Of a stretch of 64,000 bases of DNA, positions 28,826 through 31,684 are shown one piece after another. A model generated the notes under the pieces. The model saw nothing but the letters and a program-made list of their open reading frames with translations. It searched no databases and was not told where the DNA came from. The DNA comes from an uncultured Acidobacteriota bacterium (GTDB lineage: Bacteria > Acidobacteriota > Vicinamibacteria > Vicinamibacterales > CAVVIG01). Made by a program: the position numbers and the translations under genes. The DNA lies in assembly GCA_963807925.1 (NCBI GenBank), contig CAWEDP010000002.1, forward strand, positions 3,249,080 through 3,313,079, read 5' to 3'. The first letter of the stretch is position 1. Each line of letters opens with the position of its first letter.

Positions 28826-31684
28826 TCAGTAACGACTTCCTCGCACGATGGTAAGCGGATGCATGGCGGCGCTTCGGCGCGAGCTCAACGAGCGGAGGAT
28901 CGCATCGAGCACCGCGTCCAGTTCCTTCGCAAAGTCCTCGGCGAGAAAACGCAGGACGAGATAGCTATTTTCTTGCAGGAGTTGATCTTTCTTTCGATCA
29001 CGCCGGTACGCGACTGGATCCGCGAGATGCTGCGCGCCGTCCACCTCAATCACCAGGCGCGAATCGACGCAGAATCGGTCGATTTCCATCTGTCCGCGAC
29101 CGTCGAACGCGATTGGCAGATCGGCATTAAGCTGAAATCGTCCACGCGTTTCAGGCAGCGTTTCCAGACGTCTGTAGAGGAAGGCTTCGGACGCGCTTCG
29201 CGCGCGATGTGCCCCTTCGCTATCAGGAGGGATCGGACGCGCAGCTGTGACAAACAGGTTTGCCAGCGGTGTGTCAACGCCGTCGCGCACGAGACGCCGC
29301 ACGCTGGTTGCATAGTCGCGTTTCCAGCTGGGATCGGCCGGCAACGTCACGTCGGCGGGCCAGCCCGGAATTGCGCTGGCAGGCACGACAATTGTGTAGC
29401 CGACGGCTTCGTAGCCGCGGCAGCGCCGATCGAACATGCGCGCCAGCATGGGCACGTTCAGGTCCGCGTAGTCGTGCACGCGGACTTCACGTTTGCCGTC
29501 GTACAGACGATGGAGCCGTCCGACGTACTGCGCGATCGTCCCGCGCCACGATACGGGCAGCGTCAGGAAGAGCGTGTCCAAGCGGGGGTCGTCGAATCCC
29601 TCTCCGATGTACTTGCCGGTTGCGAGGATGACGCGGCCCTCATCCGGGGGAATCGCCGTCAATCGGTCGGCCGCCGCCTGCCGCTGCTTCTTGCCCATTC
29701 CGCCGCGCAGCGTCACAACGTGAGCCACCTTCCCGGATAGCTCGCTCTCGAATCGGTCGAGGTGCTCATTGCGCTCTGTCAGTACGAGCGGCGATCGCCC
29801 CGCGTCGACCGCGTGCACGACCTCGTCGCAGATGCGTCGATTGCGCTGCTCGTTATCCACCAGCTCCTGGTAGAGCGCCTGGAATTCGACACGTTTGTCC
29901 GGGCCTGCTTCCTTCCCCGATCGAAATGCCGTCGGGCGAACGAGGACCGTGTGCTCGAACGGCCTCGCCCCAGCCTGCGCCCTCGCGTCGACGCGATGCC
30001 GAACCGGACCGCATTGCATGAAGATGATTGGATGGTGCCCATCCTTCCGCGTCACTGTCGCCGACAACCCGAGGACGAACCGCGCTTTCGCACGACGGAC
30101 GACCTGCTCGAAGCTGTGCGCCGACAGATGGTGACATTCGTCGACGATTACGTGCCCGTAGTTGGCGACGCAGTCATCCACGACGCCTTTGCGAACGAGG
30201 CTTTGAATCACGGCCACGTCGATGAGGCCTGTCGGCTTGTGTCGTCCGCCGCCGATTCGGCCAATCGATTTCGCAGGCACGTCCAGAAATGTCGAGAGCC
30301 GCTGGACCCATTGGTCGAGCAGCTGGCGGCGGTGCACCAGCACGAGCGTGTTGACGCCGCGCTGCGCGATCAGCCAGGCAGCAATGACCGTCTTGCCGAA
30401 GGCCGTCGTGGCGGCGAGGACGCCGGTGTCGTGGTTCAGCATCGTGTCCGCGGCGAGGCGCTGGTCCGCTCTTAGTTCCCCCTGAAACGCGACCTCCAGG
30501 CGGTGACCGGCGAAGCGTTCGTCGCGAACGATCGGCTGGACGTTCACGTCGGTCAGTACCTGACGAACGTCCTCGAGGCACCCGCGCGGAAGGCCGATGT
30601 GGTGAGCGTGATCCTCGGCGCAGGCGATAATGCGCGGCTTGTCGTACGTCGATAGCCGCATGGCTTGCGTTTTGTAGAACTCGGGGTTCTGGAACGCCGC
30701 AACCCGCAGCAGCCGATTTCGAAGCGCCGGCAGCAACGCGTCCTTGGCAACGTAGATCTCGTTACCGAGGACCAACTCGAGAGATCGAGGCAGGTCGCCA
30801 GCGATTGGCGGGGCCCTTCGACGCCGTGACGGCGGCGCTGTCCACGGCGTTCGCTCGTCCTCCTCGTCTGGCGGCAGCCTCACGCCGAGGATGCGCCCTC
30901 GTTGCTCGGCTTCGCGTACGACGCCCTCGACCTGTCCGCGTGGAATTCGCCGAAGGCTCGAGAGAAAAGCCCATTGATCTTCGTGGGGGACGCCGCGCTC
31001 ATCAAGGAAGACGCTGTTTCCATCTCCGCGTCGATGCTTCTGCAAGGGCAACGCGATCAGATTGCCGAATCCGCCGTGTGGCAACGTGTCTTGATTGGGA
31101 AAGAATCGATCGTACGAGTCGAGCCCGAGGTCCGGCCGGGCGTCCATCGTCTCGGTCAGAATGTACGAGCCCAGCTTCCGCGCGAGCCCAGCCGGCACCG
31201 CTTCCTCAAAAAACAGCCACACATGTGCGCCACGGCCAGAGCGTGACCGCTCCAGGGCCGCTGGCAGATCCATCCGCTGGGACGTCGCCATGAACGCCGT
31301 GGAATCCGCGAGCCAATCGCTCTTGTCGAAGTCGACGGCGAGGAAGAAGCACGTCTCATCGAGCAACATGGGATAGACGCCCGCGACAAACCGCTCGCCG
31401 GCGTCGTCGTGCCCCGAGAGATGCCACCGGATGACGTTGCTGGTGACCGGTAGGAATCGCCGGTGCGGACACTCCGCGCACTTGATGCGCGGCTTCTCGC
31501 AGATGCCGCGCACCCACTCGTTCGCGCATACCGGTGCGTAGCCGGACTTGCCCGTCTTGCGGCTCTCGAACCGTCGCGGGTACACGTCGTCGCGTCCGCG
31601 GAAGAGGGACCGGAAGAGCGCGATTTTCGCCTCAGGTGACGAGAGCTGATGAACGAGAGCCTGATTCTGGTGTAGTGAATCCAT
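28826..31684 (-). CDS. AEP (primase-polymerase) - DExH SF2 helicase - DUF559 endonuclease fusion protein, intact
   Basis: 952 aa from the ATG at 31684. AEP motifs LAVDFDK (DxD), SRSGRGAHVWLFF (sGxGxH) and DSYDRFFP..GFGNLIALPL. Cys cluster CANEW..C..KCAECPH. Helicase motifs TAFGKT, VIVDECHHL, LGLSAT and QYVGRLHR. C-terminal DUF559-like IDRFCVDSRLVIEVDGAQH..RDRKKDQLL..YLVLRF. Confidence 0.85.
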   Translation of the reverse strand: MDSLHQNQALVHQLSSPEAKIALFRSLFRGRDDVYPRRFESRKTGKSGYAPVCANEWVRGICEKPRIKCAECPHRRFLPVTSNVIRWHLSGHDDAGERFVAGVYPMLLDETCFFLAVDFDKSDWLADSTAFMATSQRMDLPAALERSRSGRGAHVWLFFEEAVPAGLARKLGSYILTETMDARPDLGLDSYDRFFPNQDTLPHGGFGNLIALPLQKHRRGDGNSVFLDERGVPHEDQWAFLSSLRRIPRGQVEGVVREAEQRGRILGVRLPPDEEDERTPWTAPPSRRRRAPPIAGDLPRSLELVLGNEIYVAKDALLPALRNRLLRVAAFQNPEFYKTQAMRLSTYDKPRIIACAEDHAHHIGLPRGCLEDVRQVLTDVNVQPIVRDERFAGHRLEVAFQGELRADQRLAADTMLNHDTGVLAATTAFGKTVIAAWLIAQRGVNTLVLVHRRQLLDQWVQRLSTFLDVPAKSIGRIGGGRHKPTGLIDVAVIQSLVRKGVVDDCVANYGHVIVDECHHLSAHSFEQVVRRAKARFVLGLSATVTRKDGHHPIIFMQCGPVRHRVDARAQAGARPFEHTVLVRPTAFRSGKEAGPDKRVEFQALYQELVDNEQRNRRICDEVVHAVDAGRSPLVLTERNEHLDRFESELSGKVAHVVTLRGGMGKKQRQAAADRLTAIPPDEGRVILATGKYIGEGFDDPRLDTLFLTLPVSWRGTIAQYVGRLHRLYDGKREVRVHDYADLNVPMLARMFDRRCRGYEAVGYTIVVPASAIPGWPADVTLPADPSWKRDYATSVRRLVRDGVDTPLANLFVTAARPIPPDSEGAHRARSASEAFLYRRLETLPETRGRFQLNADLPIAFDGRGQMEIDRFCVDSRLVIEVDGAQHLADPVAYRRDRKKDQLLQENSYLVLRFLAEDFAKELDAVLDAILRSLSSRRSAAMHPLTIVRGSRY

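Follow-up and report, generated by a model that had tools for sequence, protein, structure and literature searches.

IEE of Escherichia coli O157 is, to our knowledge, the only known bacterial protein that is dedicated to the removal of insertion sequences (ISs). Here we describe a relative of this protein with an additional, predicted nuclease domain, encoded at 28826..31684 (minus strand) of a 64,000-nucleotide stretch of DNA from an uncultured Acidobacteriota bacterium (contig CAWEDP010000002.1); the whole stretch is referred to as the window. The gene is located in a small islet at a tRNA-Pro attachment site, and its family membership, intact active sites, fold and purifying selection are established here, as are the structure and recurrence of the islet. 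E. coli IEE has been studied by genetics and biochemistry (PMC9943667, PMC9397093, bioRxiv 10.1101/2023.06.07.543989) and promotes the transposase-dependent excision of elements of the IS3, IS1 and IS30 families (PMC9943667, PMC9397093). Its archaeo-eukaryotic primase (AEP) domain is a Mn-dependent, error-prone polymerase, and the protein is a DNA-dependent ATPase for which unwinding was not detectable (PMC9943667). IEE joins 3' overhangs that have at least 4 bp in common, in a microhomology end-joining reaction that needs both domains (PMC9943667). In the published model, the end-processing step is left to the transposase or to unidentified host nucleases.

In the PGAP annotation, E. coli IEE carries the name 'TOTE conflict system archaeo-eukaryotic primase domain-containing protein'. 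TOTE conflict systems are named for TPR, OB, TBP and Effector, according to the definition of Aravind, Iyer et al. (2022) as cited in bioRxiv 10.1101/2025.09.15.676423. Within the IEE family, IS-excision activity has been demonstrated for the E. coli protein alone.

Relation of the window protein to E. coli IEE

Over residues 16-766, the window protein and E. coli O157 IEE share 49% identity (370/751, E = 0). The alignment covers residues 46-778 of the 786 residues of IEE, whose end corresponds to approximately residue ~774 of the window protein. The published numbering of the IEE residues Y128, D142, D144, H178, D216 and K451 (PMC9943667) is reproduced by this alignment, in which window residues D118/D120, H154 and D192 align to IEE D142/D144, H178 and D216, and K431 aligns to IEE K451. 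The two proteins are collinear and have the same 4-Cys cluster, AEP motifs A, B and C, middle domain, SF2 motifs I-VI and Pfam AEP-TOTE domain, and both genes are horizontally spread and found among IS elements. A tblastn search of plasmid sequences gave matches that cover residues 1-766 only; one of these is the E. coli gene of 786 aa, of which O157:H7 strains have a 100% identical copy on the chromosome. The original prediction, made from the letters of the window alone, had described this architecture as flagged only computationally and as having no experimental mechanism, which is incorrect for the first 766 residues in view of their match to the characterised IEE.

By sequence and architecture, the window protein is assigned to the IEE family, with the exception that it does not end after the helicase. 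While IEE ends at this point, the window protein adds 186 residues (767-952) with a predicted DUF559 endonuclease domain. The genomic settings also differ, with IEE encoded in the large integrase-bearing island SpLE1 and the window gene in a 4-kb islet that lacks an integrase. In E. coli O157:H7 PV15-279 (L118, 1-13668; L numbers denote the loci examined), iee is located 8.3 kb from the SpLE1 integrase and is preceded by AlpA, YfjI and an IS-interrupted Gp2-like gene, with copies of IS1203 (IS3 family) on either side. The gene and the parts of its product are:

28826..31684, minus strand: IEE-family gene, 952 aa, with PrimPol, XPB-like SF2 ATPase and predicted Vsr/DUF559 nuclease
30926..31627, minus strand: AEP (PrimPol) domain, aa 20-253, with predicted catalytic residues D118/D120, H154 and D192
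31469-31528, minus strand: 4-Cys cluster, C53-C72, inside the AEP domain
30485..30787, minus strand: middle beta/alpha domain, aa ~300-400, between the AEP domain and the helicase core, common to IEE
29405..30478, minus strand: SF2 ATPase/helicase core, aa 403-760, with motifs I (GK431T), II (D515ECHH), III (SAT) and VI (QYVGRLHR)
28880..29209, minus strand: predicted Vsr-type (DUF559) endonuclease domain, aa ~826-935, with D869, E880, D882 and H886

The open reading frame (ORF) extends over 28826..31735, which would correspond to 969 aa from a TTG at 31735, and the conserved reading is the 952 aa from the ATG at 31684. The 17-codon extension from the TTG was rejected as coding, as relatives have it in another frame or interrupted by a stop, though the DNA is conserved. 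Pfam searches of the protein gave AEP-TOTE PF22548 at aa 20-253 (E 7.3e-95), ResIII at aa 403-545 (E 8.3e-20), DEAD at aa 406-546 (E 1.3e-11), Helicase_C at aa 618-727 (E 4.2e-5) and DUF559 at aa 868-933 (E 4.8e-11, 42.9 bits against a curated cut-off of 20.6). The intact 952-aa fusion of an AEP domain, a DExH helicase and a DUF559 nuclease that had been proposed from the translation is thus borne out, and each of the AEP, helicase and Cys-cluster motifs quoted at that time was found. In a 103-sequence family alignment, C53/C62/C69/C72, D118xD120, S147..G152xH154 and D192 are near-invariant, as are GK431T, D515ECHH, SAT543 and Q719..R723..R726. The window copy deviates at 11 of the near-invariant columns, which is not an excess given the family range of 0-24. 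The dN/dS ratio is 0.136 in the comparison with the closest relative and 0.086 with one that is more distant (0.09-0.14 across domains). The three-domain fusion is therefore intact and under purifying selection, in agreement with the selection that had been suspected from its open frame.

The C-terminal domain appears to be a DUF559/Vsr-like endonuclease with conserved acidic and His residues. The motif D869 / E880-x-D882 / H886 can be aligned to 3HRL, a DUF559 protein of solved structure, which was also matched by this domain in a profile search against the Protein Data Bank (PDB) (E 7e-6), and all four residues are invariant among the relatives that carry DUF559. Taken together with the alignment of the AEP and Walker A residues to IEE, the catalytic residues of all three domains align with those of known proteins, as the original prediction would have it.

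An AlphaFold2 model built from the 103-sequence diverse alignment has a mean pLDDT of 91.7 and a pTM of 0.84; an earlier model, built from 24 close homologues, had a mean pLDDT of 45.9 and was discarded as unusable. In Foldseek searches, the ATPase module matched archaeal and eukaryotic XPB and T4 UvsW best (E 5e-20 to 3e-17), and a sequence profile search against the PDB placed the SF2 core nearest to XPB, RadD and others. The polymerase domain matched the domain of CRISPR-associated Prim-Pol (CAPP; PDB 7NQD/7NQE/7NQF, TM 0.74-0.81, rmsd 3-4 A; for 7NQD, TM 0.81 and rmsd 3.0), with a profile E-value of 2e-13. The middle domain (aa ~300-400) is modelled at pLDDT >93 and, because the alignments to whole XPB chains are long (~480-740 columns), is inferred to be the counterpart of the XPB N-terminal domain. 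The nuclease domain is modelled at pLDDT ~85-95. The best 50 Foldseek matches of the whole chain are all helicase or PrimPol and none is for the nuclease domain, so that its fold is assigned solely from the sequence matches to DUF559 and 3HRL; the structure search that had been proposed as a check thus placed the ATPase and polymerase modules and did not place the nuclease.

Comparison with other described systems reveals partial similarities. The AEP domain of the window protein belongs to the Pfam family named after TOTE systems, and the fused, exchangeable nuclease domain could serve as an effector. TOTE systems differ, however, in having TPR-OB/CSD and TBP-like genes. Neither a TPR-OB (S1/cold-shock) partner nor a TATA-binding-protein-like partner was found in the islet or among the scanned window ORFs, or as a recurring neighbour of 80 homologues, which together with the window make up a neighbourhood set of 81 loci. 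The most frequent Pfam families of 124 immediate neighbours likewise include neither of them. Because both partners are absent, the window protein does not qualify as a TOTE system at the level of the operon, as far as the second-hand definition given above goes. CAPP provides the nearest solved structure for the polymerase domain but is fused to Cas1/Cas2 and not to an XPB-like ATPase. No cas genes were found among the scanned window ORFs and no CRISPR array was seen, a tandem-repeat search of the window having given IS21 terminal repeats only. The NCBIfam CAPP equivalog score is 80.3 bits against a cut-off of 200, and the window protein is not a CAPP.

Archaeal XPB-Bax1 also combines an XPB motor with a nuclease (Bax1, acting on forked DNA), which in the window protein are on one chain. 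Nevertheless, the nuclease of the window protein would be of the Vsr/DUF559 type, and the protein has an additional AEP polymerase and no link to nucleotide excision repair. The YprA proteins of ARMADA and Druantia, which are validated in phage defence (bioRxiv 10.1101/2025.09.15.676423), resemble the window protein in carrying an SF2 helicase with a C-terminal Vsr-family nuclease, but they belong to the YprA/DUF1998 helicase family, are part of multi-gene systems and have no polymerase domain.

Distribution of the family and its C-terminal tails

A HMMER search over 1.84 billion cluster representatives identified 3,739 relatives at E <= 1e-30. Among the best 150 of these 3,739 representatives, 73 have no tail, 7 have DUF559, ~55 have a PLD-like tail of 140-170 aa and 13 are fragments. 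The PLD-like group was recognized by Pfam PLDc_2 (4 of 9 tested) and by HxK(x)4D or degenerate versions of it. Judging from these sequences, the C-terminal nuclease tail is recurrent and exchangeable in the family (DUF559, PLD-like or none), a kind of swapping that is common among conflict proteins. The PLD-like tail is found in P0132, P0139, P0158, P0175 and ~50 other representatives; its HxK is often degenerate and the tail may be inactive. At the N terminus, a few family proteins have a GNAT, FMN-reductase or PNP/UDP-phosphorylase domain, possibly as the product of a gene-calling fusion. The DUF559 clade forms few 50% clusters because it is highly conserved, and is still abundant; identity to the window protein is 75-93% throughout the best 120 of the 90% clusters, almost all of which have DUF559.

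When one genome was scanned for each species, at least 593 relatives were detected. The best 80 of these are 62-82% identical to the window protein and come from many phyla, with several located on contigs of 0.1-2 Mb. The nuclease-fused variant is spread over hundreds of species of Acidobacteriota, Planctomycetota, Verrucomicrobiota, Pseudomonadota and others. Two near-identical genes (92%) from different orders have a common flank of just 135 bp upstream and ~23 bp downstream. No full-length homologue was found in 50,697 phage records, and the AEP and helicase core was found in 22 of 72,556 plasmid records, for the most part large replicons of rhizobia or roseobacters; the gene therefore does not belong to a replication module of a phage or plasmid, an origin that would have spoken against the original prediction. 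On plasmid p3 of Gemmobacter fulvus (L117, 4842-10801), a tail-less IEE-like gene lies directly beside a row of three tyrosine recombinase genes.

A DUF559, Vsr or other nuclease tail is not mentioned in an IEE review or in an AEP survey (PMC5862659), with older literature incompletely covered. As far as checked, the nuclease-fused form and the integrase-less islets are undescribed.

The islet, its relatives and its surroundings

Integrase-less islands that are flanked by att sites and can be mobilised in cis by a helper integrase have tRNA-derived repeats, form tandem arrays at one att site and carry no integrase. The window gene is the only conserved gene of an islet of this appearance, which is ~4.0 kb long, lacks an integrase and is located at a tRNA-Pro(CGG) attachment site. 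Besides the gene, the islet consists of:

27976..28027, minus strand: downstream copy of the direct repeat (attR-like, 52 nt), identical to the 3' part of tRNA-Pro(CGG), anticodon stem through CCA, plus A
28028..28095, minus strand: right arm, conserved and non-coding, inside the downstream repeat, with two CTACCC motifs and the AATCATTCGAGAAT motif
28105..28413, plus strand: DUF433 protein, putative antitoxin (Pfam DUF433, E 1.3e-20)
28410..28784, plus strand: DUF5615/PIN-like protein, putative toxin (Pfam DUF5615, E 3.1e-19; PIN_10, E 5e-4)
31685..31975, minus strand: leader or left arm, conserved and non-coding, 291 nt, between the upstream repeat and the start codon
31885-31932: inverted repeat with 13-bp arms, in the leader
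31976..32027, minus strand: upstream 52-nt direct repeat (attL-like), with the 5' tRNA half replaced by unrelated or degenerate sequence

In the direction of the gene (32027 to 27976), the order is repeat, leader, gene, the convergent DUF433 and DUF5615 pair, right arm and repeat. The leader also contains the AATYGTTCGAGATTTCTCGC motif and the ACTACCC..CGCTACCC motif. The two repeats are perfect (52/52) and lie 4,000 bp apart, with 0 matches expected by chance; their exact spacing was treated as a coincidence, as relatives span 3,966-4,7xx bp. L001 and L002 have an intact tRNA-Pro, and the 3' part of this tRNA has the same sequence as both repeats. The downstream and upstream repeats score 23.6 and 22.5 bits, respectively, with the Rfam tRNA model (gathering score 29), and the D arm is absent in both. 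No tRNA gene was found in the window (ARAGORN 0; Rfam 0 at the gathering score). The islet had been called tRNA-flanked; its flanks do derive from tRNA-Pro(CGG), but they are att-type fragments and not tRNA genes. The pair beside the gene, suspected earlier to be a toxin-antitoxin pair, proved to consist of the DUF433 and DUF5615 genes, which overlap by 4 nt. The islet holds only this pair and the IEE-family gene, with no integrase inside it, and a scan of the islet for sigma-70-like promoters and intrinsic terminators gave 0 hits.

The same arrangement was found in other genomes. The closest relative is a 3.4-kb Logan contig with 91% nucleotide identity and the same repeat, leader, gene and toxin gene. 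In L083 and L087, an intact tRNA-Pro(CGG) is followed by the leader, the gene, cargo, the right arm and the repeat, and the upstream repeat copy is part of an intact tRNA-Pro(CGG) in L001 and L002 as well. L083 and L005 carry the DUF433/DUF5615 pair at the corresponding position. In L001 the ends are the same but the cargo is a different pair of small ORFs, which from reading may be a putative toxin-antitoxin pair (one ORF was tested and gave no Pfam match). The leader aligns across the window, L001, L002, L006 and L029, and across 10 copies. The right arm is conserved between the window and L001 despite the different cargo genes, and its consensus was derived from 25 distinct copies. Motifs common to both arms are the paired CTACCC and AATC-TTCGAGA. 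A pattern of right arm plus core retrieved 33 metagenome contigs, and most of those with enough upstream sequence have an IEE-like gene ~0.7-0.9 kb upstream of the right arm. A solo left arm (inverted repeat, TTCGAGA, CTACCC), with neither an adjacent repeat nor an IEE-like gene, is present in L001 (19535-19720), 5.9 kb beyond the element and after ordinary chromosomal genes.

Direct repeats of 33-120 nt bracket the gene in 10 of the ~65 loci with usable flanks, over spans of 3.0-7.0 kb. Their sources are the 3' ends of tRNAs (tRNA-Pro, -Ser or -Thr) or of protein genes, hemN being one example. In L043 (3,033 bp) and L076 (3,361 bp), the repeats enclose no ORF other than the gene. In L073 (2499-7178), a 93-nt duplication of a hemN-like 3' end is found on both sides of an IEE-like element whose cargo is an IS200-like Y1 transposase, and the elements therefore appear to target the ends of protein-coding genes as well. 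Across the family, tRNA genes are 3-fold enriched within 1.5 kb of the gene (p 0.008), and 10 of the 11 nearby tRNAs have their 3' end toward it (p 0.006). Tandem arrays are also present, with L104-106 holding a second, truncated copy. L088 (1-4480) contains two IEE-like elements that differ from each other (81% and 76% identity to the window protein), share one repeat and are separated by right arm, repeat and left arm, while L058 (6441-12817) has two IEE-like genes in tandem, one of them frameshifted.

Compared with a tRNA-targeting integrative element, the islet has the repeats, the arms and, in relatives, tandem occupancy; an integrase is absent, as is an intact tRNA in the window. With the integrase-less att-flanked islands it shares the tRNA-derived repeats at its ends, the tandem arrays in relatives and the lack of an integrase, but it differs from them in being a small unit of conserved arms and one large gene that is maintained across ~25% nucleotide divergence and at several targets. 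No integrase was found inside the related elements, beside the islets or in the right-arm contigs without the gene, and the flanks of the 80 loci contain ~6 tyrosine-recombinase-like ORFs, as counted with a crude profile that would miss serine or divergent recombinases. No helper for islets of this type was found among viral contigs, arm-bearing contigs or the flanks of the 80 loci. The right-arm-plus-core pattern gave 0 hits in viral contigs, with neither a helper phage nor an excised form detected, and none of 22 short contigs had a circular-contig signature.

Beyond the islet, the window is crowded with IS21, IS256-like, IS110 and IS3 elements and with broken genes. The nearest integrase, a tyrosine integrase at 7308-8612 (minus strand), is ~19 kb from the islet; no tRNA or matching repeat was found near it and it has no evident link to the islet. 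It adjoins a possible small ORF (~8690-8880) that is HTH/excisionase-like by eye only. A fragment of 46 nt from the 3' part of tRNA-Asn(GTT), spanning the anticodon loop through CCA, is located at 32297-32342 (minus strand), ~270 bp beyond the upstream repeat; it matches the tRNA-Asn of L004 at 21/21 and 23/25 positions and represents a second att-type remnant at the locus. A tRNA-Asn also adjoins IEE-like genes in L004 and L030. Tandem repeats of 22-23 nt at 13378-13486, 16068-16129 and 22426-22578, beside IS21-family transposase genes (13554-15128 and 22633-24937), look like multiple terminal repeats of IS21-type elements. That genes nearby are damaged had been noticed earlier and was confirmed: an IS256-like transposase is split over two frames (25241-25585 / 25694-26518), a UvrD-like helicase gene (26086-27738) beside it is truncated and keeps the end of the N-terminal domain and the C-terminal domain, and a P-type ATPase gene (minus strand) is in two pieces, 34458-35879 and 36858-37754, split by an IS3-family element at 35635-36945 (plus strand). 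The transposase of this IS3-family element is one fused 436-aa ORF.

Proposed role and alternative explanations

Taking into consideration the close relationship to IEE, the window protein would act in an IEE-like manner on broken or branched DNA from mobile elements, with the fused nuclease nicking or trimming this DNA; we consider the chances of this proposal to be even. In E. coli, such DNA arises as intermediates when elements of the IS3, IS1 and IS30 families transpose. The ATPase module would bind and hold DNA ends or forks, and the polymerase would extend a 3' end paired via a few bases of microhomology, in end-joining or template switching, an extension that would delete or abort the mobile element. 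The nuclease could then supply the nicking or trimming step that IEE borrows from the transposase or from host nucleases. What the window protein does enzymatically, on which substrate it acts and what its nuclease contributes are all proposed by analogy. Since the IEE core was characterised on IS excision, transposing insertion sequences, and not phages, are the target that is known for the family. The IS21, IS256, IS110 and IS3 elements that crowd the window are a supporting context, as E. coli IEE is likewise flanked by IS3-family copies.

Several observations weigh against this proposal. The co-occurrence with IS elements in a single window is anecdotal, and IEE homologues beyond E. coli are without functional analysis (PMC9397093). 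The window copy has two unusual substitutions, L870R and L871F, directly after the presumed catalytic D869, and the dN/dS ratio of the nuclease domain against the closest relative is 0.45, with few changes underlying this value. Moreover, the 62-82% identity across phyla and the tiny att-flanked islets would suit a selfish or self-mobilising gene at least as well.

The original prediction had considered the gene as a single-gene defence system. In such a system, the PrimPol-ATPase core would sense foreign phage or plasmid DNA, which the C-terminal nuclease would cut. The gene does stand alone, as had been predicted, with no family of clustered flanking ORFs present in more than 4 of the 81 loci and thus no conserved partner, and its tails are exchangeable in the manner of effectors. 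Helicase-Vsr nuclease fusions are known from validated systems, e.g., ARMADA YprA (bioRxiv 10.1101/2025.09.15.676423), and both Pfam and PGAP label the domain as 'conflict system'. PADLOC, for which the strongest match was the cas-associated 'PrimPol' profile (E 1e-87), recognised no known defence system, however. The enrichment in defence islands that a survey of homologues had been expected to reveal was not seen, as the 124 immediate neighbours carry 151 Pfam families that are mostly housekeeping, with a small number of toxin-antitoxin genes, a minority of AbiEii, ParE, DUF1016 and DUF4143 genes, and just 2 integrases. The identity across phyla is unlike that of typical fast-diversifying immune genes, the TOTE partners are absent and the only family member tested experimentally acts on insertion sequences. 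A role in defence against phages or plasmids is, overall, unlikely.

Somewhat less probable still is that the protein serves the mobility or replication of the islet itself, by recognising the arms and the tRNA-derived core and by excising, copying and re-inserting the islet without an integrase. The proposed chemistry would combine cutting by the nuclease with homology- or microhomology-primed synthesis, and elements that contain only the gene (L043, L076) are compatible with this idea. The bracketing direct repeats, the arms that are conserved while the cargo varies, the common repeat between two different copies in L088, and the enrichment and orientation of tRNA genes all point in the same direction, as do the lack of an integrase within any such element and the few recombinase-like ORFs in the flanks. 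The window repeats, furthermore, are still identical, and neither is part of a working tRNA. On the other hand, the types of repeats observed, which extend from the anticodon loop or T loop to the 3' end of a tRNA or cover the 3' end of a protein gene, are those left by tyrosine integrases, and a helper integrase acting in trans is therefore the simpler account. In addition, most loci have no repeats, the short contigs are not circular, a solo left arm exists without the gene, and the crude profile would overlook some recombinases, while E. coli IEE is located in an integrase-bearing island and the Gemmobacter homologue abuts three recombinases. In its most specific form, this idea would make the PrimPol-ATPase-Vsr protein the integration and excision enzyme, working through cutting and homology-primed copying, of unrecognised integrase-free site-specific elements. 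These elements would be 3-5 kb long, possibly with one gene and structured arms, and would have their insertion sites at the 3' ends of tRNA genes and protein genes; we regard this form as slightly more doubtful again.

There is only a small chance that the protein repairs double-strand breaks of the host in general, with no particular aim at mobile elements, much like polymerase theta (a helicase joined to a polymerase) or LigD, and trims the ends with a nuclease of its own. IEE and a related PrimPol from a mobile genetic element (MGE) perform microhomology-mediated end-joining in vitro (PMC9943667, PMC11724360), and the MGE PrimPol raises survival after Cas9 cuts (PMC11724360). Nevertheless, the gene is patchy, horizontally spread and located on small insertions, which is not the pattern of core repair, and neither a ligase domain (Pfam scan of the protein) nor a ligase partner (neighbours in the 81 loci) was seen. 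Finally, an ordinary replicative primase-helicase of a plasmid or phage is most improbable, for although AEP-helicase fusions are common among mobile-element replication proteins (PMC5862659), full-length homologues are missing from the phage records searched and the core is rare in the plasmid records, the helicase is XPB-like SF2 and not a replicative SF3, SF4 or MCM, and no replication module is nearby.

Proteins that are annotated as 'TOTE conflict system AEP domain' and that have both the AEP domain and the SF2 core should be viewed as relatives of IEE. Two mechanisms are debated for IEE, namely the joining of ends after cuts by the transposase and a switch of strands during copy-out, and a natural variant with its own nuclease makes it testable whether a nuclease is the missing step in both models. 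It also raises the question of whether the family can act without a transposase. The islets, in turn, could either be satellites that borrow an integrase or, less likely, represent a new route of DNA insertion at tRNA genes.

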